A stretch of 35,732 nucleotides of DNA from Candidatus Limiplasma sp. (GTDB taxonomy: Bacteria > Bacillota > Clostridia > Christensenellales > Aristaeellaceae), in contig JAZKYW010000147.1 in assembly GCA_045612325.1 (NCBI GenBank), positions 1 through 35,732 of the forward strand, written 5' to 3'. The notes beneath the pieces are model-generated. The model was given only the letters and a program-made list of their open reading frames with translations, made no database searches and was not told where the DNA came from. The translations under genes were made by a program, and so were the position numbers. Shown here one piece after another: positions 10,627 to 32,132 of the stretch. The stretch's first letter is position 1, and every line of letters begins with the position of its first letter.

Positions 10627-10809
10627 ATGCTGCGTATGGAACCCAGGGATTATACTGTTATTCGAATCGAAGGCGAGTATGCCTATCTTCGTGCCGATGA
10701 CGCACCGACAGACGAACCGCTTTTCATTGCCATGGCACTGCTTCCCCCGGAGGTCGACATTGGCACCAGACTGCATTGCGAAATGTTCTGTTATACGGTC
10801 ATCGAGTAA
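10627..10809 (+). CDS. small DUF3006-like protein
   Basis: About 60 aa. The pattern YTVIRIEGEYAYLRADD...LPPEVDIGTRL resembles DUF3006 (xIDRFEGxxAVLE...LPxxAKEGD). A TTGCAA-17-TATCAT promoter lies at 10572-10600. The start is ambiguous (GTG 10621, ATG 10627, ATG 10636). Confidence 0.45.
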   Translation: MLRMEPRDYTVIRIEGEYAYLRADDAPTDEPLFIAMALLPPEVDIGTRLHCEMFCYTVIE

Positions 10810-10815
10810 GAGAAA

Positions 10816-10849
10816 GACTCCCCCGGAATCTTGCGGGGGAGTCTTTTTT
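10816..10849. terminator. bidirectional intrinsic terminator
   Basis: 10-bp stem gactcccccg / cgggggagtc, with an A-rich tract upstream and TTTTTT downstream. It overlaps the stop codon of the convergent GH gene. Confidence 0.75.
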
Positions 10850-12683: not shown

Positions 12684-12775
12684 GGATTTTTCCTCCCGCA
12701 GGGTTTTGTCTATTTTATCACAGATGACGACGTTTGCGAATAAGGTGATTTGCTGAAATGCATTTTCATTTTATA

Positions 12776-12804
12776 TTGACACCGTCTTGCATGAAGCCTA
12801 TAAT
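12776..12804 (+). promoter_or_regulatory. consensus SigA promoter of the PHP gene
   Basis: TTGACA (12776-12781), 17 nt, then TATAAT (12799-12804). Confidence 0.65.
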
Positions 12805-12872
12805 TCAAATCAGGAAACATTCGCGGAGCGCATATGACCGTTGGTTGTGCGTGGAAAAGGAGAATATGACCC

Positions 12873-14297
12873 ATGATGCAGTTCAAACCCAACAAGAATC
12901 TGGAAAGCTATGATGTTTATCCCAAGGTGTTTGCCATTGGTAAGACCGCGACCATTCATATCCGTCAGCTGGGCAGCAAGACGGGCCGCAATGTGGACGG
13001 TCGTCTGCCTGAGTTCATCCCCGGGCAGGAGTATAAGCTGATGATCGCCTCTCTGGAAGGCGGCAGGGATATTGAATGGCCCATCAGCGCCGACATGCCC
13101 GTGCAGCCCATCGTTTGCGATGAGAACGGCAATTTCACTTTCGAGCACACCTTCACGGCGGAGGGTCAGTACTTCCTGCGCTTTATGGATGCGGAGGACA
13201 GGCGCATCAACCAGTTCCCCGTTTTCTGCGTAGGCGAGGACCTTGTGGGCCGTTATCCCTTCCGCGGCGACCTGCACCTGCACAGCTGCCGTTCCGACGG
13301 CCGTCAAGAGCCTGAGATCGTTTGCGCCAACTATCGCCGTCATGGCTATGACTTCCTGGCCATCACCGACCATGAGCGTTACTTCCCCTCTCTGGATGCG
13401 CTGCGCTTCTACAAGGATGTGCCGATCGAACTGAACATCCTGCCCGGTGAGGAAGTGCATCCTCAGCCCGTGGACGGCATGCGCGAGCCTGTGCACATCG
13501 TCAACTTTGGCGGCGAGTATAGCGTAAACGCCATGGTGGAAGGCCTTGCCACCAACTCCCGCGGCAAGGATCCCTCCGTGCGCAGCCTGTACGGCGAGTG
13601 CCCGCCCGTGATGACCAAGGAAGAATACGATGCGCTGATGAAGAAGCTCATCGCCGAAAGCGACGTGCCCGAAGGCATCGAGCCCTTCCCCGCCGTGTGC
13701 TGCAAGTGGGTCTTTGATGAGATCCATAAGGCAAACGGTCTGGGCATTTTCTGCCATCCCCGCTGGATCTCCAACATGGTAAACGTGCCCGAGCGCTTTA
13801 CCGATTACCTGATGGATACCAAGCCCTTTGACGCCTTCGAAGTGCTCGGCGGCGAACTGTACTACGAGCAGAACGGCTTCCAGGCGCTGCGCTATTATGA
13901 GGACCGCGCCAAGGGCCGCAACTATCCCGTGGTAGGCAGCACCGACAGCCATAACTCCTATGAATCCTACGAAGAGGCGCTGATTTGCTCCACCATCGTT
14001 TTCGCTCCCGAAAACGAGCGCAAGACCCTCATTCAGGCCATCAAGGATTATTACTCCATCGCGGTGGATACCATCAGCGAGGAGTTCCGCCTTGTGGGCG
14101 ATTACCGCCTGGGCCGCTATGCGTGCTTCCTGCTCAAGGAATACTTCCCCCTGCACGATGAACTGTGCATCGAAGAAGGCCGCCTGATGAAGCAGTATGC
14201 CACCGGCACCCCCGAGGAAAAGGCAGACGCCCTGCGCGTGCTGGAAGTGCTCTGCGGCCGCGTGCAGAAGCAGCGCGAAAAGTATTTCTGCTTCTGA
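12873..14297 (+). CDS. PHP-domain metallohydrolase (CehA/McbA-like) with an N-terminal ~120-aa extra domain
   Basis: RGDLHLHSCRSDGRQEPEIVCANYRRHGYDFLAITDHERY is the PHP H-x-H...D-H signature. There are later His motifs as well (FCHPRW, GSTDSHN). GGAG lies 10 nt upstream of the ATG. Confidence 0.75.
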   Translation: MMQFKPNKNLESYDVYPKVFAIGKTATIHIRQLGSKTGRNVDGRLPEFIPGQEYKLMIASLEGGRDIEWPISADMPVQPIVCDENGNFTFEHTFTAEGQYFLRFMDAEDRRINQFPVFCVGEDLVGRYPFRGDLHLHSCRSDGRQEPEIVCANYRRHGYDFLAITDHERYFPSLDALRFYKDVPIELNILPGEEVHPQPVDGMREPVHIVNFGGEYSVNAMVEGLATNSRGKDPSVRSLYGECPPVMTKEEYDALMKKLIAESDVPEGIEPFPAVCCKWVFDEIHKANGLGIFCHPRWISNMVNVPERFTDYLMDTKPFDAFEVLGGELYYEQNGFQALRYYEDRAKGRNYPVVGSTDSHNSYESYEEALICSTIVFAPENERKTLIQAIKDYYSIAVDTISEEFRLVGDYRLGRYACFLLKEYFPLHDELCIEEGRLMKQYATGTPEEKADALRVLEVLCGRVQKQREKYFCF

Positions 14298-14317
14298 TGA
14301 TTTTCAAAATCAAAGCC

Positions 14318-14351
14318 CCCGCGTGTCCCTGTTGGGATGCGCGGGTTTTTT
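14318..14351 (+). terminator. intrinsic terminator of the PHP gene
   Basis: 12-bp stem cccgcgtgtccc / gggatgcgcggg (two G-U pairs), loop tgtt, then TTTTTT. Confidence 0.8.
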
Positions 14352-14424
14352 GTGTTTTTGTATTGCGCTTTGGGCGTTGGTCGGGTACACTACAGATAAC
14401 TGAGAACCTGACGGAGGGTTTGCC

Positions 14425-16437
14425 ATGTACGAACAATTGAACATCCAATGTGAATATTTGACGGATACGCCCGCGTGCAAAGAATTTCGCTTCACGCTGC
14501 ATAACCCCACGCACGAAGAGATTTGGCTGGAAGAGTTTGAGCTTTTTGGCACCGATGATTTGACAACGCTTGATATTTCCAAGGAGGACTGCCGTGTATT
14601 CCGCACGGGCCGTCACAAAAACGATATGCCTTCCGTGGCGCAGCTTGGTAGAATGGACGATGCTTTGCAGGATGCGCTGGGCGGCATGACGGAATCGGGC
14701 GACAGGGCCGAAAGCAGCGGAAAGCGTCTGCTCATCAGCGACCATCTGACCGTACTTGGCAGCGGCGAAAAGTGGTGCATGCTTGCCTTCATGACGGGCG
14801 ATGAGCAGATGTTCGCAACGGAGATCATCCTTTCGGAAACAGGCGAATTTGTGTCGCTCTCCAGCCATGTGCAGTTTCACCGCTACATCCGTGCGGGAGA
14901 AACGCTCACGACCGAAACGCTGCGCATTGAGCAGACGGCAGACCCCGAAAAGAGCATCCGCGCGTTTGCCAAAGCAAAGGCCAAGCCCCGTCCCTCGCTG
15001 ACGGAAGGGCCGCCTTCCGTGTTCTGCACATGGTATTATTACGGCCTGACCGTCACCGAAGAGGATGTGATGGTCAATCTGGAGCGGATGAGCAAACAGA
15101 AATTGCCCTTTGATGTGTTCCAAATCGACGAGGGCTGGGAAATCGCGCTGGGACATTGGGAACAGAACGAGAAATTCCCCACGCCCATGAAGGAGATTGC
15201 CTACCGCATCCGTGAGGCAGGCTACCGCCCCGGTATCTGGACCAGTCCCTTTGTGGCTAAGGAGACCTCTCCCGTGATGCTTGAGCATCCCGAGTGGATC
15301 CTGCGCGACCGCGAAGGCAATCCCTGCATCTTCCCCATGAACGATACCACGCATTATGTGCTGGATATCACCCATCCCGGTACCTTGCCGTATCTGACCG
15401 AGCTTTACCGCCACCTCACCTTTGATTGGGGCTATACCTACCACAAGCTGGATTTCACCCGCGCGCCCATGATCTACGAGGATGCGGATTTCCACAACAA
15501 GTACATCACCCCCGCGAAAGCGTACCGCGAGGCGGTCGCAGCCATCCGCAAGGGTATGGGGGAGGATGCATATTTCCTGATGTGCGGCGGCCTGTATGAC
15601 CCGCTCATCGGTATGGTGGATGCGCAGCGCAGCGGCTCGGATGTGCTGTCCATGTGGTCGTCCACGGTCAACAAGGGCGGCAAGACCGCGCCGTATACCA
15701 TCAAGCAGAGCCTGCTGCGCTACTACATGAATGAATGGTGGCACAACGACCCCGATGCGCTGATGATCCGCCGAAATGATCAAATGGAGCGCGGCCTGCG
15801 CCTGACTTACGGTTTGCTCAACGAGGATGAGGTGCGCACGGTGGTTGCCAATCAGCTGATCGGCGGCGGCATCGTCTGTTCCACCGAGCCGCTGGACAAG
15901 ATCGATGCGGACCGCCTTGCGCGTCTGCGCCACCTGCTGCCGCCCATGCGCACGCAAGTGCAGCCGCTTGCCATGATGGATTCGGGCCGCTTCCCCGATC
16001 AGGTGCGTGTGACCTTTGATGGAGATGACCGCGTGCTGGTCGCGCTGATCAACTGGTCGGATGACGAAAGCATCCCCGCCTGCATCAAACTGGACGCGCA
16101 AACGCTCGGCGCAGCCTATGCGCAGGAGGCGCGATATGTGGTCAGCAGCTTCTTTGACGGCGACTGGCAGGCAAATATAGCGGCTGATGAAAATGTTGCC
16201 TTGGGTCAAATCGCGCCTCACAGCACCGCGATGCTGAAAATCGAGCGTCAGGCGGATAAGCCCATTGTTGCGGCGTCCGATGCGCACTTCAGCATGGGCC
16301 TTGAACTGGATGACCTTCGCATGGAGGATGGCGCAGCTTTCGCCAGGCGCCAGCCCTCCTGCTGGGACGCGCGTTACACGGTGCTTGACCCCGTAACGGG
16401 CCAAACCGCGGAGCTTATCTTTGCGGCAGAAGAATAA
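14425..16437 (+). CDS. alpha-galactosidase-like glycoside hydrolase (clan GH-D), paralog 3
   Basis: 670 aa. VFCTWYYYGL, FQIDEGWE, HKLDFT (nucleophile motif), QRSGSDV (R-x-x-x-D) and WHNDPDALMI. It is collinear with paralog 2 motif by motif. GGAGGG lies 6 nt upstream. Confidence 0.75.
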   Translation: MYEQLNIQCEYLTDTPACKEFRFTLHNPTHEEIWLEEFELFGTDDLTTLDISKEDCRVFRTGRHKNDMPSVAQLGRMDDALQDALGGMTESGDRAESSGKRLLISDHLTVLGSGEKWCMLAFMTGDEQMFATEIILSETGEFVSLSSHVQFHRYIRAGETLTTETLRIEQTADPEKSIRAFAKAKAKPRPSLTEGPPSVFCTWYYYGLTVTEEDVMVNLERMSKQKLPFDVFQIDEGWEIALGHWEQNEKFPTPMKEIAYRIREAGYRPGIWTSPFVAKETSPVMLEHPEWILRDREGNPCIFPMNDTTHYVLDITHPGTLPYLTELYRHLTFDWGYTYHKLDFTRAPMIYEDADFHNKYITPAKAYREAVAAIRKGMGEDAYFLMCGGLYDPLIGMVDAQRSGSDVLSMWSSTVNKGGKTAPYTIKQSLLRYYMNEWWHNDPDALMIRRNDQMERGLRLTYGLLNEDEVRTVVANQLIGGGIVCSTEPLDKIDADRLARLRHLLPPMRTQVQPLAMMDSGRFPDQVRVTFDGDDRVLVALINWSDDESIPACIKLDAQTLGAAYAQEARYVVSSFFDGDWQANIAADENVALGQIAPHSTAMLKIERQADKPIVAASDAHFSMGLELDDLRMEDGAAFARRQPSCWDARYTVLDPVTGQTAELIFAAEE

Positions 16438-21189: not shown

Positions 21190-21229
21190 TCGTGACACGA
21201 ATTGTGTACCGTAAGTGGAGGGGATTATC

Positions 21230-22150
21230 TTGAATATCCTGCATATGAAATACGCTGTAGAGGTGGCGAAGGCGGGGTCGCTGAACAAGGCGGCGCAGAC
21301 GCTGCTCATCGCGCAGCCTAACCTGAGCCGTTCCATCAGGGAACTGGAGGCAGACCTGGGCATCGTGATTTTCGACCGCTCTGCCAAAGGCATGATGCTT
21401 ACCCCGGAAGGACAGGAGTTTGTGGGCTATGCCCGCAGCATCCTCAGGCAGATCGATCAGGTGGAAAACATGTATAAGGATACCTCTGCAGCCAAACAGA
21501 GGTTTTCCATCTCGGTGCCGCGCGCTTGCTATATCTCCGAAGCGTTCGCACAGTTTTCGCGTACGCTGACGGATGAGGCTGCGGAGGTGTTTTATAAGGA
21601 GACCAACTCGCAGCGCACCATCCGTAACCTGCTGGAGCATGATTTCAGGCTGGGCATCATCCGCTATGCAGAGAACTACGACAAGTACTTCGGCACCATG
21701 CTGGAGGAAAAGGAACTGACAGGCGAGATGATCTGTGAATTTACCTATCGCCTGATCATGAGCCGCCAGCATCCTTTGGCAGCGAAGGAAGAGATCACCT
21801 TTGCCGACCTGCGCCCCTTTATCGAGATCGCCCATGCCGACCCGTACGTACCCTCGCTGCCGCTTTCCAAGGTGGTCAAGGAGGAACTGCCCGATAACAT
21901 CGACCGCAGAATTTTCATCTACGAACGCGCCAGCCAGTTTGACCTGCTGAGCGAAAATCCGCAAACGTTTATGTGGGTATCGCCCGTGCCCGAAAAGCTG
22001 CTGGAGCGCTACGGGCTTGTGCAGCGCAAGTGCATAGAAAACCACAAGGTCTACCGCGATGTGCTGATTTATCGCAAAGGATATAAGCTGACCGCGCTGG
22101 ACAACGCTTTTATCACGGAGTTGTGTATGGCAAAGCGAAAATATCTGTAA
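21230..22150 (+). CDS. LysR-family transcriptional regulator
   Basis: N-terminal wHTH (L)NILHMKYAVEVAKAGSLNKAAQTLLIAQPNLSRSIRELEADLGIVIFDR. TTG start at 21230, 6 nt after GGAGGGG (alternative ATG at 21245). It begins 40 nt after the C11 stop with no terminator in between. Confidence 0.85.
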   Translation: MNILHMKYAVEVAKAGSLNKAAQTLLIAQPNLSRSIRELEADLGIVIFDRSAKGMMLTPEGQEFVGYARSILRQIDQVENMYKDTSAAKQRFSISVPRACYISEAFAQFSRTLTDEAAEVFYKETNSQRTIRNLLEHDFRLGIIRYAENYDKYFGTMLEEKELTGEMICEFTYRLIMSRQHPLAAKEEITFADLRPFIEIAHADPYVPSLPLSKVVKEELPDNIDRRIFIYERASQFDLLSENPQTFMWVSPVPEKLLERYGLVQRKCIENHKVYRDVLIYRKGYKLTALDNAFITELCMAKRKYL

Positions 22151-22175
22151 GGCAGGGTAAAACCTGCCTTTTTTG
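22149..22175 (+). terminator. intrinsic terminator of the LysR gene
   Basis: Stem aaggcagg / cctgcctt, loop gtaaaa, then TTTTGT. Confidence 0.7.
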
Positions 22176-22238
22176 TCTGTTAAATGCCCTTTTCCTCCGT
22201 ATATCAAAAATGATCATACCCCTATAACAATTTTAGAA

Positions 22239-22267
22239 TTGCCAAAACGGGATTCTGTTGTTAAAAT
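22239..22267 (+). promoter_or_regulatory. SigA promoter of the kinase / HydS operon
   Basis: TTGCCA (22239-22244), 17 nt, then TAAAAT (22262-22267). Confidence 0.55.
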
Positions 22268-22275
22268 CTTAACGA
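22258..22275. promoter_or_regulatory. putative Rex (NADH/NAD+-sensing repressor) operator overlapping the -10 box
   Basis: TTGTTAA-aatc-TTAACGA matches the clostridial Rex consensus TTGTTAA-N4-TTAACAA at 13 of 14 specified positions. Confidence 0.45.
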
Positions 22276-22323: not shown

Positions 22324-23073
22324 TTGATGATGGACCGTATCATTGCCGTGCGCAATCAAAAAACCATTTACCGCGACGGCAGCAAGTGCATCAAAGTTTT
22401 CAATGAGGATTATTCCAAAGCGGATATTTTGAGCGAAGCGCTCCATCAGGCGTGCGCGGAGCAGACGGGTCTGCACGTGCCGCGTATTCTGGAAGTGACC
22501 ACCATGGATGGCAAGTGGGCAATCGTTTCCGAATACATAAAAGGAAAAACTTTGTCGCAAAAGATGCAGGAAACTCCCCAAGAAATCGAGAAATATTTCA
22601 CAATGTATGTGGATCTTCAGCTGAAGGTGCATGCCCAAAAATGTCCGCTGCTGCCTAAGCTCAGCGACAAGCTGAACCGCAACATCAGCCTGATGGAAAC
22701 AGACGAAGCCCTGCGCTGCGAGCTGAAAAACCGTCTGGCTGCCATGCCCGAGCACACCCGGCTGTGCCACGGCGATTTTAACCCCTCCAACATCATCATT
22801 GCCGAAAACGGAGCACCTTACATTCTGGATTGGTCGCATGCCGCGCAGGGAGACCCCGCTGCCGATGCCGCCTGTGCGTATCTGCTGTTTTGCCTCAATG
22901 GCGACAGTGAAGGCGCACAGCGGTATCTGGAGCTTTTCTGCCGAAAGAGCGGCACGAGCAAAGCGAGTGTGCAGGGTTGGATGCCCATTGTGGCTGCCGC
23001 CCGTTCCGTCAAGGGAAACGCCGGCGAGCGGGATGTTCTGCTCAGTTGGCTCAATGCTGTTGATTGCCATTAA
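22324..23073 (+). CDS. APH/choline-kinase-fold phosphotransferase (kinase-like)
   Basis: 249 aa. Beta-3 Lys in SKCIKVF, catalytic loop LCHGDFNPSNIII and ILDWSHA (DxS in place of DFG). GGGAGGA lies 8 nt upstream of the TTG at 22324 (ATG alternatives at 22327 and 22330). Confidence 0.7.
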   Translation: MMMDRIIAVRNQKTIYRDGSKCIKVFNEDYSKADILSEALHQACAEQTGLHVPRILEVTTMDGKWAIVSEYIKGKTLSQKMQETPQEIEKYFTMYVDLQLKVHAQKCPLLPKLSDKLNRNISLMETDEALRCELKNRLAAMPEHTRLCHGDFNPSNIIIAENGAPYILDWSHAAQGDPAADAACAYLLFCLNGDSEGAQRYLELFCRKSGTSKASVQGWMPIVAAARSVKGNAGERDVLLSWLNAVDCH

Positions 23074-23107
23074 TCCCCCCCGTATTTACAAAAAGGAGAT
23101 CATCGCA

Positions 23108-23347
23108 ATGAAAATTACCATCTGCATCGGTTCCAGCTGCCACCTCAAGGGCTCCCGCCAGATCGTTGAAGAGCTTCAGCGCCTGGTGAAGGAAAACAAC
23201 CTGAATGACAAGGTGGAACTGGCCGGCCAGTTCTGCATGGGCAACTGCCAGAACGGCGTTTGCGTTACCGTAGACGGCGAAGCCTTCTCCCTTACCCCCG
23301 AAACCACCCGCGCATTCTTTGAGAAGGACATTCTGCCCCGTCTGTAA
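23108..23347 (+). CDS. thioredoxin-like [2Fe-2S] ferredoxin (HfsA/NuoE-like small subunit)
   Basis: 79 aa, MKITICIGSSCHLKGS...QFCMGNCQNG, giving C6-x4-C11 ... C44-x3-C48. AGGAG lies 10 nt upstream of the ATG at 23108. Confidence 0.7.
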   Translation: MKITICIGSSCHLKGSRQIVEELQRLVKENNLNDKVELAGQFCMGNCQNGVCVTVDGEAFSLTPETTRAFFEKDILPRL

Positions 23348-23422
23348 TTTCTGAATTCAAAAGCAAAGGGCTGGCGCACAAACGCGTCAGCCCTGCAGTG
23401 CTGTTCACGGGAGGAACGCCAC

Positions 23423-25099
23423 ATGCAGGAAATACTCAACCTGAACAAAAACAACTGTACCGACTGTTATAAGTGTATCCGCGACTGCTCTGTCAAGGCC
23501 ATCACCTTTGCCAAGGATACGGCCGAGATCGTGCATGAGGATTGCATCCTCTGCGGCCGCTGCTATGTTACCTGCCCGCAGAAGGCCAAGCAGGTGCGTG
23601 ATGATATCACCCGCATCAAGGCAGCTATCCTCAGCAGCCGCCGCGTGGTGGTCAGCCTTGCGCCCTCCTTTATTGCCAACTTCCGCATCCGTTCGCTGGA
23701 AGTGATCACCGAAGCCCTGCAGAAGCTGGGCTTTGATGAGGTGCAGGAAACCGCCATCGGCGCTCAGCTGGTCAGTGAGGAATACGAAAAGATCATGCGC
23801 GAGGAAAAGCTGCCGGTCATTATTTCCAGCTGCTGTCCCTCGATCAACATGCTCATCAAAAAGTATTATCCCACCATGCTTCCTTATCTGGCGAAGGTGC
23901 TCACCCCCATGGAAGCGCACTGCAAGCTGATCAAGCAGGAGCAGCCCGATGCATTCACCGTGTTCATCGGCCCCTGCATCGCCAAAAAGAAGGAAGGCGA
24001 CGACAGCCCCTACGTGGATGCCGTGCTCACCTATGACGAGCTGGCTGACTGGTTCCACAAGGAAGAGATCAAGCTGCCCTACGAGCATGTAGACCCCGCG
24101 AGCGAAGGCGCGCTGGCCCGTCTGTATCCCGCTACCGGCGGCGTGCTGAAGGCTACCGCCAAGGTGGGCGGCTACCGCCGCATCGCCATCGACGGCGTGG
24201 ATAACTGCCGCAGCGTATTTGACGAGATCGAGAAGAGCTTCTTCAACAAGGTGTTCATTGAGATGCGCGCCTGCGAAGGCAGCTGCGGCAACGGCCCCTG
24301 CATCCGCGACCACGCCGAGCGCCGCCTCAAGGGCGCCATGCGTGTTGATACCTTTGCCGGCAGCGGTGAAACGCCCTATGTGGTGCCCAACAAGCCCGAC
24401 ATTCAGGCCACCTACGGCTTCGAAGGCGGCAACAAGGTCAAGTTTGGCAGCGACGCCATCCGCGACATGCTCTACAAGATGGGCAAGACCAGCCCCGAGA
24501 AGGAGCTCAACTGCGGCTCCTGCGGCTATCCCACCTGCCGCGACAAGGCCATCGCCATTCTGGAAGGCAAGGCCAAGATCGAGATGTGTCTGCCCTTCCT
24601 GAAGGAAAAGGCCGAAAGCTTCTCCGATACCATTATTTACAACACGCCCACCGCCATCCTCGTAATGGACGAGGACCTGGTCGTTCAGCAGATCAACCCG
24701 TCGGCTATCAAGATGTTCAAGCTGAAGGACGCCAACGAGATCCTGCATGAGCATGTGGTCAAGATCCTCAATCCCGCCAATTACCAGATGATCGTCAATG
24801 CCGCGCTGCACACCCAGCATCACAGGTACCGTCTGGAGGAGTATGGCGTGCACGTGGACGAGACCATCCTCTACGACCGTCAGTATCACGTAGTCATTAC
24901 GCTTATGCGCGATGTGACCGAGCACGAAAAGCTGCGTCAGCAGGGTGCGGAACTGCGCCAGCAGACCGCCGAAGTCACCAACAAGGTGATCGACAAGCAG
25001 ATGCGCATCGTGCAGGAGATCGCTTCTCTGCTGGGTGAAACCACCGCCGAAACCCAGATCGCTCTTACCAAACTGAAGGATGCGATGGCCCATGAGTGA
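23423..25099 (+). CDS. hydS: sensory (group C, HydS/HfsB-type) [FeFe]-hydrogenase with C-terminal PAS domain
   Basis: Two ferredoxin motifs (CTDCYKCIRDC, CILCGRCYVTCP). H-cluster motifs SSCCPS, GPCIAKKKE and EMRACEGSCGNG. An extra C364-x2-C367-x4-C372-x16-C389 motif. A PAS-like segment spans about residues 400-500, followed by a coiled-coil tail. GGGAGGA lies 6 nt upstream. Confidence 0.85.
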   Translation: MQEILNLNKNNCTDCYKCIRDCSVKAITFAKDTAEIVHEDCILCGRCYVTCPQKAKQVRDDITRIKAAILSSRRVVVSLAPSFIANFRIRSLEVITEALQKLGFDEVQETAIGAQLVSEEYEKIMREEKLPVIISSCCPSINMLIKKYYPTMLPYLAKVLTPMEAHCKLIKQEQPDAFTVFIGPCIAKKKEGDDSPYVDAVLTYDELADWFHKEEIKLPYEHVDPASEGALARLYPATGGVLKATAKVGGYRRIAIDGVDNCRSVFDEIEKSFFNKVFIEMRACEGSCGNGPCIRDHAERRLKGAMRVDTFAGSGETPYVVPNKPDIQATYGFEGGNKVKFGSDAIRDMLYKMGKTSPEKELNCGSCGYPTCRDKAIAILEGKAKIEMCLPFLKEKAESFSDTIIYNTPTAILVMDEDLVVQQINPSAIKMFKLKDANEILHEHVVKILNPANYQMIVNAALHTQHHRYRLEEYGVHVDETILYDRQYHVVITLMRDVTEHEKLRQQGAELRQQTAEVTNKVIDKQMRIVQEIASLLGETTAETQIALTKLKDAMAHE

Positions 25100-26264
25100 C
25101 CTTTGGATCGAAACAGGCTGGCTCAGCCTGAACCATGTGGGGGAGACGCTTTGCGGCGACAAGGTCGAGGTTTTCGGCGGCGGCGATGAAGACCTGACGC
25201 TGGTTTTGGCGGACGGCCTTGGCAGCGGCGTAAAAGCAAACATCCTGTCCACTCTTACCTCCAAGATCCTGTGTACCATGATCTCCGGCGGTATTCCGCT
25301 GGAGGACTGCGTAGCCACCATTGCAAGCACCCTGCCTGTTTGCAGCGTGCGTCAGGTGGCGTATTCCACCTTTACCATCCTGCAGATCAAAAACAACGAA
25401 ACTGCTCACATCATCCAGTTCGACAATCCTGCCACGATTGTTCTGCGCAAGGGCGAGGTGTTCGATTATCCCCGCACCACGCGCAGCATCGCCGGCAAGA
25501 CCATCTGGGAAAGCTCCTTCCCCATTGAAGAGGATGACGTGTTCATCGCCATGAGCGACGGCGCGGAGTGGGCAGGCGTTGGCATGACCATGAACTTTGG
25601 CTGGACGCGTGATTCCATCGCCGAGTTTGCCATGGCCAACCACATGCCCGATGACAGCGCCAAAGCGACTGCCGGTCTCATCATTGACGAGTGCAACCGC
25701 CTCTACGGCGGCCGCCCGGGTGATGATACCACCATTGCCGTTGCGCATGTACGTCCCCGCCACAGCGTCAACCTCATGGTCGGCCCGCCCGAAAACAAGG
25801 AAGACGACGAGCGCGTGATGGAACTGTTCTTCGGCAAGGCAGGCAGCAGGATCGTTTGCGGCGGTACCACCAGCAATGTGGTCTCCCGCTATCTGGACCA
25901 GCCCATCGTTGCCTCTCTGGATTACTGGGACCCCGAAGTGCCGCCCATCTGCACCATCAAGGGTGTAGACCTGACCACCGAAGGCGTGATCACGCTTTCC
26001 AAGGTGCTTACCTATGCCGAGGACTTCCTCGACCAGGCAAAGCTGGCCCCTGTGTGGACCACCAAAAAAGACGGCGCAAGCCTCATCGCCCGCGAACTGT
26101 TTGAAAACGCGACGGATATTCATTTCTTCGTGGGCCGCGCCATCAACCCGGCGCACCAGAACCCCAATCTGCCCATCAACTTTGCCATCAAGCAGCAGCT
26201 GATCACCAATCTTGCAAAATGTCTTGAAAAAATGGGCAAGCACATCCGTCTTTCCTACTTCTGA
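25092..26264 (+). CDS. PP2C/SpoIIE-family serine phosphatase (HfsC-like) with an extra C-terminal domain
   Basis: CGDKVEVF, LADGLGSGVKA, AMSDGAEW and GDDTTIAV are SpoIIE/PP2C metal-binding motifs. The ATG at 25092 overlaps the hydS stop (ATGAGTGA). An alternative ATG lies at 25080. Confidence 0.85.
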   Translation: MSDLWIETGWLSLNHVGETLCGDKVEVFGGGDEDLTLVLADGLGSGVKANILSTLTSKILCTMISGGIPLEDCVATIASTLPVCSVRQVAYSTFTILQIKNNETAHIIQFDNPATIVLRKGEVFDYPRTTRSIAGKTIWESSFPIEEDDVFIAMSDGAEWAGVGMTMNFGWTRDSIAEFAMANHMPDDSAKATAGLIIDECNRLYGGRPGDDTTIAVAHVRPRHSVNLMVGPPENKEDDERVMELFFGKAGSRIVCGGTTSNVVSRYLDQPIVASLDYWDPEVPPICTIKGVDLTTEGVITLSKVLTYAEDFLDQAKLAPVWTTKKDGASLIARELFENATDIHFFVGRAINPAHQNPNLPINFAIKQQLITNLAKCLEKMGKHIRLSYF

Positions 26265-26289
26265 TGCCGTTGAGGAGGCCTTTTACATC

Positions 26290-27717
26290 ATGAAACTCTT
26301 CGATACCTACGTACAGAAACTGAAATACAAGGTGCTCCGCGAGGTCGCACGTCACGATTATGAAGGACGTTTGCAGGACAGCTATCTAGACATCCCCAAG
26401 CAGATCTCTCCCGGCCCCAAGAGCGCCCTGCGCTGCTGCATCTACAAGGAGCGCGCCATTACTGCCGAGCGCGTCAAGATGGCGATGGGCGGTCACAAGG
26501 AAAATCCCAATGTGATCGAAGTCATTGATATCGCCTGCGATGAATGCCCTGTCAGCGGCTACCGCGTAGGCCCCGACTGCCGCGGCTGTATCGCTCACCG
26601 CTGCGCCAGCGTCTGCCCCCGCGGCGCCATCAGCTTTGACGAGAATCACCATGCGCACATCGACCCCGACAAGTGCATCAACTGCGGCAAGTGCGCCGGC
26701 GTCTGCCCCTACAGCGCTATCCAGAACCACACCCGCCCCTGCGAGCGCGCCTGTAAGGTCAAGGCCATTTCTCAGGGTGAGAACCATGTAGCCAAGATCG
26801 ATGACAGCAAGTGCATCTCCTGCGGCGCCTGTGTGTATCAGTGTCCCTTCGGCGCCATTCAGGACAAGAGCTTCCTGCTGGATGCCATCCGTCTGATCCG
26901 CGAAAGCGAAAACAACAAGAAGTACCGCGTGTATGCCGTGGTCGCACCTTCCATCTCCAGCCAGTTTGTGCATGTGAAGGTTGGTCAGGTCATCACCGCG
27001 CTGAAGCATCTGGGCTTCTTCACCGTGATCGAGGCTGCTCTGGGCGCTGACATGGTCGCCTACAAGGAAGCCCGTGAGCTTGCCGAAAAGGGCTTCCTCA
27101 CCTCCAGCTGCTGCCCCGGCTTCGTCGCCTATATCGAAAAGACCTTCCCCGCGCTCAAGCAGCATATCAGCCACAACTATTCTCCCATGGCTGAGCTGGG
27201 CCGCTACATCAAGGAGACCGACCCCACCGCCAAGGTCATCTTCATTGGACCCTGCACCGCCAAGAAGGCGGAGGCTCAGCGTGAGAATGTGAAGGAGCAT
27301 GTGGATTGCGTGCTGACCTTTGAAGAACTGCAGGCCTGGATCGACAGCCGTGACCTTGACCTCGCTTCCCTCGAGGTGGGCGTGCTGGATAACGCCAGCT
27401 ACTTCGGCCGCATCTTTGCCCGCTCCGGCGGTCTGAGCGACAGCGTTGTGCAGGCCCTGAAGGAGCAGAACATCGATTTCATCGTCAACCCCGTGGTGTG
27501 CGATGGCATCGAGGAATGCCGCCTTGCCCTGCTCAAGAAGCAGAAGAACCTGCTCAAGGAAAACTTCATCGAAGGCATGGCCTGCAGCGGCGGCTGTATC
27601 GGCGGCGCAGGCTGCCTGACCCACGGCCCCAAGGACAAGGGCGAAGTGGACAAGTACGGCCACGAAGCCTACGAAAAGACCATCGGCGATGCCCTGGCCC
27701 TGTGGAATCAAAAGTAA
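26290..27717 (+). CDS. [FeFe]-hydrogenase, group B type (HfsD-like), catalytic
   Basis: 475 aa. The N-terminal MKLFDTYVQKLKYKVLREVARHDYEG region is followed by several CxxCxxCxxxCP clusters. H-cluster motifs are TSSCCPGF, GPCTAKKAEA and EGMACSGGCIGGAGC. Start set at M27 of the track ORF, with GAGGAGG 11 nt upstream. Confidence 0.85.
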   Translation: MKLFDTYVQKLKYKVLREVARHDYEGRLQDSYLDIPKQISPGPKSALRCCIYKERAITAERVKMAMGGHKENPNVIEVIDIACDECPVSGYRVGPDCRGCIAHRCASVCPRGAISFDENHHAHIDPDKCINCGKCAGVCPYSAIQNHTRPCERACKVKAISQGENHVAKIDDSKCISCGACVYQCPFGAIQDKSFLLDAIRLIRESENNKKYRVYAVVAPSISSQFVHVKVGQVITALKHLGFFTVIEAALGADMVAYKEARELAEKGFLTSSCCPGFVAYIEKTFPALKQHISHNYSPMAELGRYIKETDPTAKVIFIGPCTAKKAEAQRENVKEHVDCVLTFEELQAWIDSRDLDLASLEVGVLDNASYFGRIFARSGGLSDSVVQALKEQNIDFIVNPVVCDGIEECRLALLKKQKNLLKENFIEGMACSGGCIGGAGCLTHGPKDKGEVDKYGHEAYEKTIGDALALWNQK

Positions 27718-27730
27718 AAGTTAATAAAAA

Positions 27731-27765
27731 ACATCCCCGCCAAAAGAGTGGCGGGGATGTTTTTA
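27731..27765. terminator. bidirectional intrinsic terminator (end of hydrogenase operon / end of XRE gene)
   Basis: 11-bp stem acatccccgcc / ggcggggatgt, with A-run 27726-27730 and TTTTT 27761-27765. Confidence 0.8.
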
Positions 27766-27782: not shown

Positions 27783-27998
27783 TTATTTATTCATGGATTT
27801 TTGGGAAGTGCGCCCTGTCAAAAAATCCAAGGAAACGTGATAGAAATCAGCAAGCTTCAAAAGATGCTCAAGAGGGATGGTTTGAAAACCTCGTTCGTAA
27901 CGGCTGTATACAGTTTGTTGGATGCCTAAAAGTTCGGCAACTTGAGCCTGCGTTAAATCGGAGTCTTCGCGCATATCTCGTATCCGCTGGAAATACAT
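27783..27998 (-). CDS. XRE-family (Cro/CI-type) HTH transcriptional regulator
   Basis: 71 aa, MYFQRIRDMREDSDLTQAQVAELLGIQQTVYSRYERGFQTIPLEHLLKLADFYHVSLDFLTGRT. AAGGAG lies 10 nt upstream of the ATG at 27998. The GTGs at 28004 and 28007 are too close to the RBS. Confidence 0.85.
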   Translation of the reverse strand: MYFQRIRDMREDSDLTQAQVAELLGIQQTVYSRYERGFQTIPLEHLLKLADFYHVSLDFLTGRTSQKSMNK

Positions 27999-28020
27999 GC
28001 GCACCACACTCCTTCTTATT

Positions 28021-28103: not shown

Positions 28104-29114
28104 ATGCAAGCAATGGTTTGTGAACTTTGCAACAGCAACGATATTGTTAAGTCTGACGGTGTTTATGTTTGTCAGCATTGTGGTACAAAATATACTGTTG
28201 AAGAGGCAAAAAAGCTGATAGGAACGGTGAAAATCGATAAATCGGAAGAAACTGAAAAATATTTAACTCTTGCAAGAAGAGCAAGAGACGAAGAGAATAT
28301 TGAAAATGCGATAAAATATTATGATATGGTATTGCGAGACAATCCCGATAACTGGGAAGCATCGTTTTATCAAGTATATTTCCAGGCGATGAACTGTAAA
28401 ATTGCAGGGATTTCAAATGCAGCTACCTCTGTGACGAATACGATAAAACCAACCTTCAAATTGATTAAAGAACATGTGGCAAATGACGAACAACAAAAAG
28501 CTGTAATTGAAGTGATGATGAGGGCGATATCTCTTGCTACGATGCTTGCTAATGCTGCAAATAATCATTATTCAAAACATTCTACTGTCAATACAGCACG
28601 TGAAGAATTAAATAATCGTCTGTTTTGTGCTGGAAGCATTTACTTGGAAATCGAAAATGGACTGAAGGAATTCTTTCCGGATGAAGAAAGAATTTTAACT
28701 TTGCATCAACAAACATGCAATAGTTATTTTAGTAGTACTAATGGGAGCTGCTTAAATTCAGATTTTCGGACTAAATTAATCAATAGATTGGTTAATGAAA
28801 TACATCAAAAAGATCCGACTTATACGGCACCAACGGTCCAAAGTGGAGGTTGCTACGTTGCCACTTGTGTATACGGCTCCTACGATTGCCCACAAGTGTG
28901 GGTACTGCGCCGCTTCCGAGATTATACGCTTGGTTCTACGTGGTATGGTCGTATGTTTGTTTCGGGTTACTATGCGGTAAGTCCGACAATTGTTCGACTT
29001 TTTGGTGAGCAGGAAAGATTCAAAACGTTTTGGAAACACCGACTTGACAAATTAGTGAATAGGTTGCAGGAGAAAGGTGTATCGGACAAACCTTACCTGG
29101 ACAGAGAGTGGTAA
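28104..29114 (+). CDS. hypothetical protein: N-terminal zinc ribbon + helical/TPR-like middle + Cys-rich C-terminal domain (CFI-box-like)
   Basis: 336 aa, 30-43% GC. C6-x2-C9...C23-x2-C26 ribbon. TPR-like segment YLTLARRARDEENIENAIKYYDMVLRDNPDNWEA. C-terminal GGCYVATCVYGSYDCPQVWVLRRFRDYTLGSTWYGRMFVSGYYAVSPTIVRLFG. AGGAGG lies 7 nt upstream. Confidence 0.8.
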   Translation: MQAMVCELCNSNDIVKSDGVYVCQHCGTKYTVEEAKKLIGTVKIDKSEETEKYLTLARRARDEENIENAIKYYDMVLRDNPDNWEASFYQVYFQAMNCKIAGISNAATSVTNTIKPTFKLIKEHVANDEQQKAVIEVMMRAISLATMLANAANNHYSKHSTVNTAREELNNRLFCAGSIYLEIENGLKEFFPDEERILTLHQQTCNSYFSSTNGSCLNSDFRTKLINRLVNEIHQKDPTYTAPTVQSGGCYVATCVYGSYDCPQVWVLRRFRDYTLGSTWYGRMFVSGYYAVSPTIVRLFGEQERFKTFWKHRLDKLVNRLQEKGVSDKPYLDREW

Positions 29115-29176: not shown

Positions 29177-29412
29177 GTACGCAGAAGGAGAATCCTCCCG
29201 CAAGCCATCCTCCAGAAAGCATGTTCACGGCTGCAAGACATGCGCTTGGCAAAAGGAGCGTCCCAACTCCCGAGTACGCAGGGGAAAGCTGAAACCCTGC
29301 CGGCCGCTCCCGTTACCGAGCACGCAAGGACGCCGTTTTCGGCGTTGAAGCAAGGTGGTACCGCGAAGAAGTTCAAGCTTCGCCCCTGCATTGAAGGGGC
29401 GAAGCTTTTTTT
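29177..29412 (+). promoter_or_regulatory. T-box riboswitch leader (proline-specific, proS)
   Basis: Conserved T-box sequence AAGGTGGTACCGCG at 29352-29365. A 13-bp terminator aagcttcgcccct / aggggcgaagctt (29375-29407) plus T7. Hand-folded Stem I has GGAG (29187-29190) pairing with CTCC (29267-29270) and places CCC-A (29262-29265) in the specifier loop. It lies directly upstream of proS. Confidence 0.8.
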
Positions 29413-29443
29413 CATCTTCTACACTGCAAAAGGAGAGAAAACC

Positions 29444-31171
29444 ATGAAGCTCAAGAATCTCGTATCCAAGCGTTATAAGGAAACGCCCGCCGACTGCCAA
29501 ATCGCCAGCCAGGCGCTCATGATGCGCGGCGGCTACATCAAGCCCGTCGGCAACGGCATCTTCACCCTGTTCCCCGCTACCAAGCGCATCACCAGCAAGA
29601 TCGAAAAGATCATCCGCGAAGAGATGAACCGCATTGACGGTCAGGAGCTGCTGTTCCCCGTTGTTATGCCCGCCACCATGTGGCAGGAGAGCGGCCGTTT
29701 TGAAGCCATCGGCTCCGAACTGCTGCGCTTCAAGGATCGTTCCGGCGCTGATATGGTGCTGGGCATGACCCACGAAGAAGCCTCCGTACACTTTGTACGC
29801 GACGTTGCTGACAGCTACACCCAGTATCCCTTCATGGTTTACCAGATCCAGACCAAGTTCCGCGATGAACCCCGCTGCCGCGGCGGTCTGATCCGTGTAC
29901 GCGAGTTCACCATGAAGGATGCTTACTCCTTCCACACCTCCCAGGAGGATCTGGAGCGTTACTACCAGATCTGCTATGACGCTTACAACCGCATCTTTGC
30001 CCGCGCCGGCGTGCCCGAGGTCGTGGCTGTTGCCAGCGACAGCGGCATGATGGGCGGCAAGGTCTCTCACGAGTACATGCTGCTGACCGCCGTTGGTGAG
30101 GATACCATCGTGCTGTGTCACGACTGCGACTACCGCGCCAACATGGAAGCCGCTCCCTGCATCGTGAACAACGAGGCAGGCGAGGTTGCCGAGCTGACCA
30201 AGGTAGCTACCCCCAATGTCAAGACCATCGAGGATCTGTGCGCCTTCCTGAACGTACGCGCCGATGCTACCTGCAAGGCCGTTGTCTATCAGGAGAACCT
30301 GACCGATAAGTATGTTGTCGCCTTCCTGCGCGGCGATCTGGACCTGAACGAGACCAAGCTGCGCAACCACATCAAGGCTGAGATCCATGCTGCCGAACTC
30401 ACCGAGGAAAGCCCCCTGTGCGCCGGCTTTATCGGCCCCGTAGGCATCAGCAAGGACGTGCGCGTAGTATTTGACGCTTCCCTCAAGGGCATCAACGCTC
30501 TGGTTTGCGGCGCCAACGAGACCGACGCTCACATGACCGGCCTCAACATCGCCCGCGATATCGGCGAGGTTGAGTATGTTGACGTTGCCAAGGCCTATGA
30601 CGGAGGCATCTGCCCCGTTTGCGGCAAGCCCAGCGTGTACACCTCCCGCGGCATCGAGGTGGGCAACATCTTCCAGCTGGGCACCAAGTACACCGAGAGC
30701 ATGGGCATGACCTATGTTGGTCAGGACGGCAGCCTCAAGAACCCCATCATGGGCTGCTACGGCATCGGCGTAGGCCGTCTGGCCGCTTCCGTCTGCGAAG
30801 CTCACCGCGATGATTACGGCCCCATCTGGCCCATCTCCATCGCTCCCTGGCATGTACACCTGTGCAGCATGCGCCCCGATAACGAGGAAGTGGCTGCCAT
30901 GTCCCAGAAGATCTATGACGAACTGTCTGCCAAGGGCATCGAAGTCATCTGGGATGACCGTCCCGTCAGCGCCGGCGTTATGTTTGCCGATGCCGACCTC
31001 ATCGGCGTGCCCGTGCGCATGATCGTTAGCCCCAAGGGCCTCAAGGGCGGCACCATCGAAGTGTCCACCCGCGACAAGAGCCTGCAGGAGCGCAAGCCTA
31101 TCGAAGAAGCCGTCGATTTCGTTTACAACTACGTTGTGGATGAACTGGCCAAGCTGGAGTGCCGCCTGTAA
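29444..31171 (+). CDS. proS: prolyl-tRNA synthetase (bacterial type with INS editing domain)
   Basis: 575 aa. MKLKNLVSKRYKETPADCQIASQALMMRGGYIKPVGNGIFTLFP. Class II motifs FRDEPRCRGGLIRVREFTMKDAYSF and GCYGIGVGRL. Start set at M69 of the track ORF, with AAGGAG upstream of the ATG at 29444. Confidence 0.95.
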   Translation: MKLKNLVSKRYKETPADCQIASQALMMRGGYIKPVGNGIFTLFPATKRITSKIEKIIREEMNRIDGQELLFPVVMPATMWQESGRFEAIGSELLRFKDRSGADMVLGMTHEEASVHFVRDVADSYTQYPFMVYQIQTKFRDEPRCRGGLIRVREFTMKDAYSFHTSQEDLERYYQICYDAYNRIFARAGVPEVVAVASDSGMMGGKVSHEYMLLTAVGEDTIVLCHDCDYRANMEAAPCIVNNEAGEVAELTKVATPNVKTIEDLCAFLNVRADATCKAVVYQENLTDKYVVAFLRGDLDLNETKLRNHIKAEIHAAELTEESPLCAGFIGPVGISKDVRVVFDASLKGINALVCGANETDAHMTGLNIARDIGEVEYVDVAKAYDGGICPVCGKPSVYTSRGIEVGNIFQLGTKYTESMGMTYVGQDGSLKNPIMGCYGIGVGRLAASVCEAHRDDYGPIWPISIAPWHVHLCSMRPDNEEVAAMSQKIYDELSAKGIEVIWDDRPVSAGVMFADADLIGVPVRMIVSPKGLKGGTIEVSTRDKSLQERKPIEEAVDFVYNYVVDELAKLECRL

Positions 31172-31229: not shown

Positions 31230-32075
31230 TTATTTGCAATGGGTACGAAACACATTCATGATATGGGATTGATAAGACGGGTCGTCTGCGCCGATTTGAT
31301 AAAAATGCGCATAGATCAATACCATGTAGTATTGAACATACTTCCAATTGCAAGCGTTTGCTGAGTGATATCCCTTTAAAAACAAAGCGATTTCTTCGTC
31401 TGTTTTTAGAAATGTTTGTCCGGGTCTGACGATCAGAGCCCACGCGATATCGAACTCCCTATTGCCTATACCTGATAATTCAAAATCCAGTATGGCGGAT
31501 ATGCGTTCTTTCTGCCAGAGAATATTTGCATAATGAAAATCGCCATGGCAAAAGCATTTGCTGATTGATTGTGGGCGATTTTCTGTCAAAAAATCATGGA
31601 CGAAACACAGATGGTATTTCTTAAAGTATTGTCGGTTAGGAATGTGAAAGAATTTTCGGTCTTTTACATCGGTAAAATCTCCATGAATGCTGTGTAGTTG
31701 GGCAAGGGTTTTGCCGTATTCATGAAGATAATGGAGGGAGGATGCGTTGGAGTCAGAGGCAAGGATGATTGACAGCCGTTCACCGTGTTTGGCAGCTGTC
31801 ACTAAAAAGCTGTGTTCCTGTTCGTCAAATTCAAGGATATCGGGCGCAAGGGGATGATGCAGTTGTGTGATCGCGGAAAATTCATTAGCCAAGTCGGCAC
31901 CCGATTGACGAGCAACCTTGATATATGCTTCTGTTTCTGCACCTTTGAAAAGCCCTTTTACGTGAAATACATCGTTACCCGCATGGGGATAACCAAGAAT
32001 ATCCGTAAGCTTGAAAAATCGCAAAGGAAGCTTCCAAGGGTCGATTGTATCTCTCCATTTTTGAGGATGTTTCAT
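31230..32075 (-). CDS. aminoglycoside-phosphotransferase (APH)-family kinase, low-GC
   Basis: 281 aa. Beta-3 Lys in AYIKVAR, catalytic loop CFCHGDFHYANILW and LDFELSG (DFG equivalent). AGGAGG lies 5 nt upstream of the ATG at 32075. Hand-counted lines give 38-42% GC. Confidence 0.75.
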   Translation of the reverse strand: MKHPQKWRDTIDPWKLPLRFFKLTDILGYPHAGNDVFHVKGLFKGAETEAYIKVARQSGADLANEFSAITQLHHPLAPDILEFDEQEHSFLVTAAKHGERLSIILASDSNASSLHYLHEYGKTLAQLHSIHGDFTDVKDRKFFHIPNRQYFKKYHLCFVHDFLTENRPQSISKCFCHGDFHYANILWQKERISAILDFELSGIGNREFDIAWALIVRPGQTFLKTDEEIALFLKGYHSANACNWKYVQYYMVLIYAHFYQIGADDPSYQSHIMNVFRTHCK

Positions 32076-32106
32076 TTTTCCTCCTAAAAGGTAAAAAGGA
32101 AGCAAA

Positions 32107-32132
32107 CTCACAACGGGTATACGAGTTGTGAG
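32107..32132 (-). terminator. terminator hairpin of the AEC permease operon
   Basis: 8-bp stem ctcacaac / gttgtgag. The minus-strand RNA continues UUUGCUUCCUUUUU. Confidence 0.5.

Follow-up and report, generated by a model that had tools for sequence, protein, structure and literature searches.

The closest described counterpart of the locus treated here lies on plasmid pRUMAL01 of Ruminococcus albus 7, where the genes run in the order LysR-Rex-AdhE-phosphotransferase (249 amino acids, aa)-Fdx-Fdx-HydS-SpoIIE-HydA2 (478 aa). Growing R. albus together with an H2-consuming partner lowers expression of its eight-gene cluster 111-fold (PMC6776011, Greening et al. 2019), and Zheng et al. 2014, in the part quoted in PMC5707799, proposed that HydS senses H2 and signals to the adjacent Ser/Thr kinase. 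In Clostridium thermocellum the genes Cthe_0422-0430 encode Rex, AdhE, an 'aminoglycoside phosphotransferase' (Cthe_0424), a hypothetical protein (Cthe_0425), a HydS-like Fe-S protein (Cthe_0426), a SpoIIE protein (Cthe_0427) and hydrogenase proteins; they are regulated as one block, and the co-regulation spans Cthe_0422-0432 (PMC3848806). We analysed a stretch of 35,732 nucleotides (nt) from Candidatus Limiplasma sp. (contig JAZKYW010000147.1 of assembly GCA_045612325.1; hereafter the window), in which five genes at 22324-27717 encode a phosphotransferase of the APH/choline-kinase fold (hereafter the kinase), a [2Fe-2S] ferredoxin, HydS, a PP2C/SpoIIE-family phosphatase and a group B [FeFe] hydrogenase. 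Judged by gene content and orthology, this locus is a local example of the hydrogen- and redox-controlled hydrogenase cluster described in R. albus and C. thermocellum.

The genes and signals of the locus are the following (coordinates, strand, description and basis).

21215..22150, + strand, LysR-type transcriptional regulator (Pfam HTH_1, 63.5 bits)
22149..22170, + strand, terminator-like hairpin after the LysR gene (8-pair stem, then a T run)
22202..22215, unstranded, dyad TATCAAAAATGATC, candidate LysR site (consensus TATC-N6-GATA)
22239..22267, + strand, sigma-70-type promoter-like site (TTGCCA, 17 nt, TG-TAAAAT; 10/12 matches, extended -10)
22258..22275, unstranded, predicted Rex operator TTGTTAAAATCTTAACGA (one mismatch to TTGTTAANNNNTTAACAA)
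22324..23073, + strand, APH/choline-kinase-fold phosphotransferase, 249 aa (Pfam APH, 64.6 bits)
23108..23347, + strand, [2Fe-2S] thioredoxin-like ferredoxin of the Fdx1 type, 79 aa (Pfam 2Fe-2S_thioredx, 34.5 bits)
23423..25099, + strand, HydS, putative H2-sensing [FeFe] hydrogenase of group C (M2f) (Pfam domains, CpI alignment)
25092..26264, + strand, PP2C/SpoIIE-family phosphatase (Pfam SpoIIE, 46.6 bits)
26290..27717, + strand, group B monomeric [FeFe] hydrogenase (NCBIfam TIGR04105, 562.6 bits)
27727..27764, unstranded, predicted bidirectional intrinsic terminator (perfect hairpin with a 16-pair stem, A/T runs on both sides)

The five co-directional genes form a predicted operon. Their junctions measure, in order, 34 nt, 75 nt, an overlap of 8 nt and 25 nt; a terminator scan gave no terminator-like site on the + strand inside the operon, and the hairpin at 22149-22170 separates it from the LysR gene. 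A sequence-only reading made before our analysis had described this operon with its junctions, promoter, Rex box and terminator, and our scans of open reading frames (ORFs) and signals agree with it on each of these. Pfam and NCBIfam scans likewise return the domain identities it had given for all five genes (the group B model included), and its remark that the window holds no hydE/F/G maturase genes is matched by their absence among the larger ORFs that we scanned. An Rfam scan of the window yielded two tRNAs only, with no RNA element within the operon.

The same reading had likened the locus, with its Rex box, to hfsABCD and to the hydS unit of R. albus. The likeness proves to be orthology: the genes shared with the R. 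albus 7 cluster (reached by tblastn of plasmid records) stand in the same order and orientation, with full-length identities of 64% for LysR, which also heads the R. albus cluster, 58% for the kinase, 48% for HydS, 56% for PP2C and 69% for the hydrogenase. Both clusters have the 8-nt overlap of HydS and PP2C, and in both the dyad motif follows the LysR gene on its 3' side. Unlike R. albus 7, the window has no rex or adhE between LysR and kinase (tblastn with R. albus Rex and AdhE gave no match in the window), carries one ferredoxin instead of two, and has its Rex-box promoter directly before the kinase gene. A minority of relatives share these differences in gene content, the single ferredoxin included, and L061 and L075 are likewise without rex and adhE; as the window has no rex gene of its own, the repressor has to come from a gene outside it. 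Two earlier statements have to be given up. The unit had been called unexplained, yet it is orthologous gene for gene to the pRUMAL01 cluster. The kinase had been listed as an unusual feature, yet the same place is taken by the R. albus gene (WP_013483408, also 249 aa) and by Cthe_0424; by this conserved position it is a known, standing member of a described cluster.

The other two clostridial systems agree in part. C. thermocellum shows the order Rex-AdhE-APH-small protein-HydS-SpoIIE, as compared by the annotation in the paper rather than by sequences; its downstream hydrogenase is annotated with an NADH dehydrogenase 24-kDa subunit and an Fe-only hydrogenase, not as a monomeric group B enzyme. 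In hfsABCD of Thermoanaerobacterium saccharolyticum, which we compared by description, the counterparts are HfsB (homologous to HydS and likewise containing PAS), HfsC (a Ser phosphatase) and HfsD (a ferredoxin-linked hydrogenase resembling HydA2), and deletion of hfsB in Thermoanaerobacterium alters adhE expression. Unlike the window, hfsABCD has no kinase gene described in it, and HfsA is described as aligning poorly with known proteins. We considered Tsac_0415, which lies beside adhE in T. saccharolyticum, as a counterpart of the kinase and rejected it: the gene is divergently transcribed, restricted to the genus and of unknown function.

Overall, the locus is the local form of a fermentation module for 'high-H2 / reduced-state' conditions that is conserved in clostridia and known chiefly from R. 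albus 7 and C. thermocellum. With a probability of roughly 0.6 we read it as a LysR-activated and Rex-repressed operon that encodes both a group B hydrogenase and an H2 sensor controlling a PP2C phosphatase, and in which the APH-fold kinase opposes that phosphatase. One promoter would drive all five genes, needing activation by LysR and being released from Rex as NADH/NAD+ rises, and the ferredoxin-dependent group B hydrogenase would dispose of electrons as H2. The sensor unit would be made up of HydS, the small [2Fe-2S] ferredoxin as a subunit and the PP2C that is translationally coupled to HydS. We infer that HydS senses H2, which would be bound or turned over at its intact H-cluster, and that it forms a complex with PP2C, in which the C-terminal cluster and the PAS region of HydS would alter the activity of the bound phosphatase. 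The APH-fold protein, if it acts as a protein kinase, is the most likely enzyme to oppose PP2C; the two would set the phosphorylation of a target, for which the LysR activator, HydS/PP2C themselves and AdhE are candidates, and this would tune expression or activity of the hydrogenase and of the alcohol branch to the H2 level. As transcriptional output of the cluster, the LysR regulator is the natural candidate.

The evidence for a sensor begins with the architecture of HydS. Pfam finds Fe_hyd_lg_C (172 bits), FeS (PF04060, 45 bits), PAS (24.7 bits) and N-terminal Fer4 families, and the translation shows the motif C364-x2-C367-x4-C372-x16-C389 (Cx2Cx4Cx16C) at residues 364-389. An N-terminal 4Fe-4S region, an H-domain, a C-terminal Cx2Cx4Cx16C motif and a PAS domain make up the group C (M2f) architecture as that family is defined in PMC8163306. 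The earlier assignment also holds in a proper alignment: all four cysteine ligands of the H-cluster are kept when HydS is aligned with CpI (whose numbering we use for H-domain residues), and the equivalents of C300, C355, C499 and C503 are invariant in 67/67 HydS orthologues, the window's included. Both methionines around the 2Fe site are exchanged: Gly takes the place of M353 in 67/67 orthologues, and Ser that of M497 in 66/67.

Compared with the characterised proteins TmHydS (group C, M2f, Thermotoga maritima) and TamHydS (group D, M2e, Thermoanaerobacter mathranii), the window HydS shares the 4Fe-4S region, the H-domain and the Cx2Cx4Cx16C motif; it has a PAS domain and Gly for M353 like TmHydS, and the replacement of M497 by Ser in its clade is that of TmHydS as well. 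The proton path of group A enzymes marks a difference. C299 is retained in 66/67 orthologues, E279 in 63/67 and E282 as 54 Glu and 9 Asp, and all three are kept in the window, whereas TmHydS and TamHydS carry Ala at position 299. The window HydS thus does not share the TmHydS-like loss of proton-transfer residues, which is a property of the characterised examples and not part of the formal definition of group C. We had considered that the whole path is retained and dropped this, given that the S319 position is Ala in 67/67 orthologues (Ala157 in the window). As the R. albus-type clade keeps C299 and TmHydS and TamHydS have Ala, the physiological and the biochemical models differ at the active site.

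Two residues set the window's HydS apart from all others among the 67. Residue 282 of the protein (24266-24268), at the M497 position beside the 2Fe subsite, is Arg instead of Ser, and residue 289 (24287-24289) is Gly instead of Val, Ile or Met. Each is a single-base change with respect to an 88%-identical relative (L089). S282R and V289G could mean that the variant is functional or that the sensor has begun to decay, or they could be errors of the assembly.

In the ferredoxin, Cys6, Cys11, Cys43 and Cys47 are invariant. Its identity to R. albus Fdx1 is 63%, that to Fdx2 47%; two ferredoxin copies occur in 45/47 kinase-anchored loci, and the window is without the Fdx2 paralogue. Across the loci we found no strict correlation between ferredoxin type (Fdx1 or Fdx2) and presence of the kinase.

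The tightest link in the system is that between HydS and PP2C, where the 8-nt overlap of HydS stop and PP2C start is kept in 115/129 loci. The phosphatase domain covers residues 1-225 of PP2C (Pfam SpoIIE, 46.6 bits against 25), its metal-binding aspartates D23, D41, D156, D211 and D212 are invariant in 25 homologues, and in Foldseek the model matches SpoIIE and RsbX. Residues ~229-390 (25776-26264) make up a C-terminal alpha/beta domain that is conserved and in which the motifs GGTT and NPAHQNP are invariant. For this domain Pfam yields no match even with E up to 10, PDB sequences yield none of note, and a Foldseek search with the full-length model returned matches to the PP2C domain only, none to the C-terminal domain. 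It could be a HydS-docking or ligand-binding part. The last gene of the operon encodes a group B hydrogenase: its product matches TIGR04105 over model positions 1-461 of 462 with 562.6 bits, where the cut-off is 450, and is, at its 69% identity, the orthologue of R. albus HydA2.

Evidence for the proposed control comes from the region upstream. The LysR gene at 21215-22150 is, by its recurrence, a conserved part of the operon's neighbourhood, being present in 46/53 kinase-anchored loci with sufficient upstream sequence. Among 46 distinct intergenic regions 3' of a LysR gene, the dyad TATC-N6-GATA occurs in 40 and a Rex box in 27, and wherever both occur the Rex box begins 55-56 nt past the dyad, a spacing that is fixed across dozens of species. 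The centre of the window's dyad lies ~65 nt upstream of the inferred transcription start, which is the usual position of the recognition site on LysR-type promoters; 22202-22215 is therefore a candidate LysR binding site. The Rex box TTGTTAAAATCTTAACGA overlaps the -10 element, is the sole match in the window (0.02 expected by chance) and is conserved at the equivalent place in orthologous promoters. By this operator the operon belongs to the predicted Rex regulon. The combination of dyad and Rex box is common to these loci whichever gene leads (rex, adhE or kinase), and the window's promoter region aligns with the intergenic regions that precede adhE or rex in relatives. A LysR-type site together with a Rex operator over the -10 element implies that expression should need the LysR activator and be released once NADH/NAD+ increases. 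The sequence-only reading had noted that no STAS/anti-sigma antagonist, response regulator or sigma factor lies nearby; this stands for the classes it listed and passes over the LysR gene directly upstream with its conserved dyad.

That the first gene of the operon has an APH fold, as proposed earlier, is supported by Pfam (PF01636, 64.6 bits against a cut-off of 23.2) and by an AlphaFold model (pLDDT 85.5) whose top Foldseek matches are APH(3') enzymes (E ~6e-10, TM ~0.6). The HGDFNPSN catalytic loop spans residues 149-156, and the catalytic residues of the APH family (the ATP-binding K24, the loop H149-G-D151-x4-N156 and the Mg-binding D169) are invariant among orthologues. It does not score as a Hanks-type kinase: the Pfam Pkinase match reaches 16.6 bits against a cut-off of 31.7 and covers the catalytic loop only. 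Among all proteins of the collection its best match reaches no more than 72% identity. No study seems to have been devoted to the kinase of this cluster. Homologues of 30-35% identity in Bacillus, Niallia and Rhizobium were tried as a functional clue and set aside, their contexts being unrelated. The window contains a second APH-family gene (31230-32111, - strand, 293 aa), convergent with the prolyl-tRNA synthetase gene at 29240-31171; we rejected it as a relative of the operon kinase, with which it has only the catalytic loop in common, and its place beside proS, which recalls Collinsella, is a coincidence.

To place the kinase in its wider setting, an alignment of its orthologues was used, which matched at least 583 species-representative genomes, so that the gene is present in at least as many species representatives; the best 80 loci were taken. 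Fdx-HydS-PP2C lies directly 3' of the kinase in 47/56 loci with at least 5.5 kilobases (kb) of downstream sequence, which answers in the affirmative the earlier question of whether kinase and hydS are syntenic in other genomes. Rex is present in 26 of the 53 loci with sufficient upstream sequence. These counts point to two separable modules that are usually joined, LysR-(Rex)-AdhE-kinase and Fdx-HydS-PP2C-hydrogenase. The kinase sits at the seam between the AdhE module and the HydS module, and its tie to adhE is no weaker than that to the sensor.

Three loci have LysR-AdhE-kinase units without HydS/PP2C (L016, L034 and L059). In the first of these (10797-14983), NfnAB-like genes (DHODB Fe-S, Fer4_20/Pyr_redox_2) and a radical-SAM/BATS gene follow on the 3' side of the kinase; the product of the latter could be a HydE/HydG-type maturase, and the neighbourhood is still redox-related. 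The other kinase loci that are without HydS have unrelated genes downstream.

Several results weigh against the kinase as the opponent of a HydS-controlled phosphatase. The kinase-PP2C link is not obligate: 9/56 kinase loci have no HydS/PP2C downstream, the kinase is found in 29/48 and missing from 19/48 PP2C-anchored metagenome loci with sufficient upstream sequence, and a Monoglobus cluster is without it. In the closest relatives of the window (L089 and L090, PP2C 92% identical), Fdx-HydS-PP2C-hydrogenase stands in a different neighbourhood, after an HpcH/HpaI aldolase gene and away from any kinase or LysR gene; by this comparison, and with no match to the window's kinase above 72% identity, the LysR-kinase and hfs-like segments seem to have different histories in the window's lineage. 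The immediate upstream neighbour of the kinase is adhE in 54/57 loci with at least 3 kb of upstream sequence. The fold of the kinase is closest to that of small-molecule kinases (APH(3') and choline kinase), and no STAS-domain substrate or HATPase_c anti-sigma kinase was found among annotated or Pfam-scanned neighbours in the window and in the eight loci L001-L008. As for the sensor, biochemical work on one group D HydS found its C-terminal cluster to stay unreduced under H2, and according to a 2026 study the interaction partners of sensory [FeFe] hydrogenases are still to be identified. The earlier proposal of the kinase as partner of the PP2C remains reasonable, but an exclusive partnership is weakened: the kinase tracks adhE more closely, and kinase and PP2C each occur without the other. 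The proposal had been made before for R. albus, and our co-occurrence data favour it only in part.

It is possible, then, though we lean away from it, that the kinase serves AdhE and the alcohol branch, phosphorylating AdhE or something that AdhE needs, and stands beside HydS by way of a shared Rex/LysR regulon; the window would hold the remnant of an adhE-kinase pair after loss or move of adhE. The adjacency of the two genes speaks for this, as do the three LysR-AdhE-kinase units mentioned above and the alignment of the window's promoter with adhE-driving promoters of relatives. In Collinsella aerofaciens (Actinomycetota; L173, 3228-6729) adhE is followed by a full-length kinase homologue of 40% identity, with no HydS, PP2C or hydrogenase genes beside the pair, which also counts against a strict tie to the sensor and, as far as gene order can tell, points to a functional link of adhE and kinase across phyla. 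In addition, PMC5707799 suspects post-transcriptional control of AdhE activity. Nonetheless, the kinase is found without adhE in the window, in L061 and L075 and in a divergent clade with the order Rex-kinase-Fdx-HydS (L124, L131, L132, L144, L147, L153 and L172), so that it also persists with the HydS module alone.

Whether the enzyme acts on a protein at all can be questioned too. We find it doubtful that it is a small-molecule kinase, with a cofactor precursor or a LysR-effector metabolite as substrate and with the PP2C partnered by another, unlinked kinase. After APH(3'), the next Foldseek matches are choline-kinase-family proteins, methylthioribose kinase and YtaA, capreomycin phosphotransferase is matched as well, and the best PDB sequence match is the choline kinase 4r77; there is also a weak match to the thiamine-kinase model TIGR02721 (E 8e-10). 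Furthermore, the homologues are almost all free-standing proteins of ~250 aa with no fused protein-interaction domain (among the 150 best of 255 clusters at 50% identity, E up to 1e-30), and PP2C modules without the kinase are common. All scores against named small-molecule kinase families are, however, far under their cut-offs, and weak matches to RIO/Bud32 protein kinases occur in Pfam and NCBIfam too. Some APH-fold relatives (CotS/YtaA) are annotated as protein-associated, and the genes conserved beside the kinase include neither a transporter nor a pathway enzyme for a candidate substrate.

A further proposal concerns the sensor instead of the kinase, namely that Fdx, HydS and PP2C are subunits or maturation/regulatory parts of a multi-subunit Hfs hydrogenase, in which HydS is itself catalytic. 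The retained C299, E279 and E282 would fit such a role, PMC13277313 raises the possibility that HfsABC is a functional hydrogenase without HfsD, and in five loci (L104-L108) Fdx-HydS-PP2C occurs with no group B hydrogenase detected downstream. We nevertheless consider it quite improbable: the S319 position is Ala, M353 and M497 are replaced as they are in the low-activity TmHydS, the PAS domain and the coupled PP2C are parts typical of signalling, and deletion of hfsB raised hydrogenase activity instead of lowering it. Finally, the notion that the kinase gene confers resistance to aminoglycosides or macrolides and lies there by chance has in its favour the Pfam APH match and the APH(3') resistance enzymes as closest structures, and is hardly credible at 41.5 bits against a cut-off of 205 for the APH(3') equivalog NF033068, below 20 bits for macrolide phosphotransferase models, with the same position in the redox cluster conserved in hundreds of species and with the C. 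thermocellum gene co-regulated with rex and hydrogenase genes.

The preferred reading, a HydS-controlled PP2C opposed by the kinase, can also be set beside better-known signalling systems. It resembles the partner-switching modules SpoIIE-SpoIIAA-SpoIIAB and RsbU/RsbX-RsbV-RsbW in its SpoIIE/RsbX-type phosphatase and in having a kinase gene in the operon; unlike in those modules, the kinase has an APH fold, no STAS substrate or HATPase_c kinase was found in the window or the related loci scanned, and the PP2C has an unassigned C-terminal domain. With HoxBC-HoxJ-HoxA of Ralstonia eutropha it would share a low-activity hydrogenase, a PAS-type element and phosphorylation controlling hydrogenase genes, whereas the proteins are unrelated and a histidine kinase with a response regulator is used there in place of a Ser/Thr-type kinase and PP2C. 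A stricter form of the proposal, in which the APH-fold protein kinase and the HydS-coupled PP2C make up an uncharacterised H2-responsive phospho-switch that acts on LysR or AdhE without a STAS or response-regulator intermediate, seems to us unlikely; if true, it would supply the missing output step of signalling by [FeFe] sensory hydrogenases. How these hydrogenases relay the H2 signal is a standing question, which the locus sharpens and does not open. It names components for testing: a catalytically intact, conserved kinase, a LysR activator and a coupled PP2C whose C-terminal domain is unassigned. These genes are also present in organisms open to genetics, C. thermocellum among them, so that direct tests of the hypotheses are feasible. 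In Clostridia of the gut, of the rumen and of biofuel production, the cluster governs how fermentation is divided among H2, acetate and ethanol.

Two further observations concern other parts of the window. At 19-1212 a CotH kinase-family protein is encoded (Pfam CotH, 96 bits), a member of an atypical protein-kinase family that is unrelated to the operon. Directly past the operon terminator, the segment 27783-29114 has a guanine-cytosine content of 37% against ~55% elsewhere and contains an Xre-type HTH gene (27783-28007, - strand) and a gene whose product combines zinc-ribbon/TPR and CFI-box-CTERM domains (28104-29114); the segment has the appearance of a small, acquired insertion.

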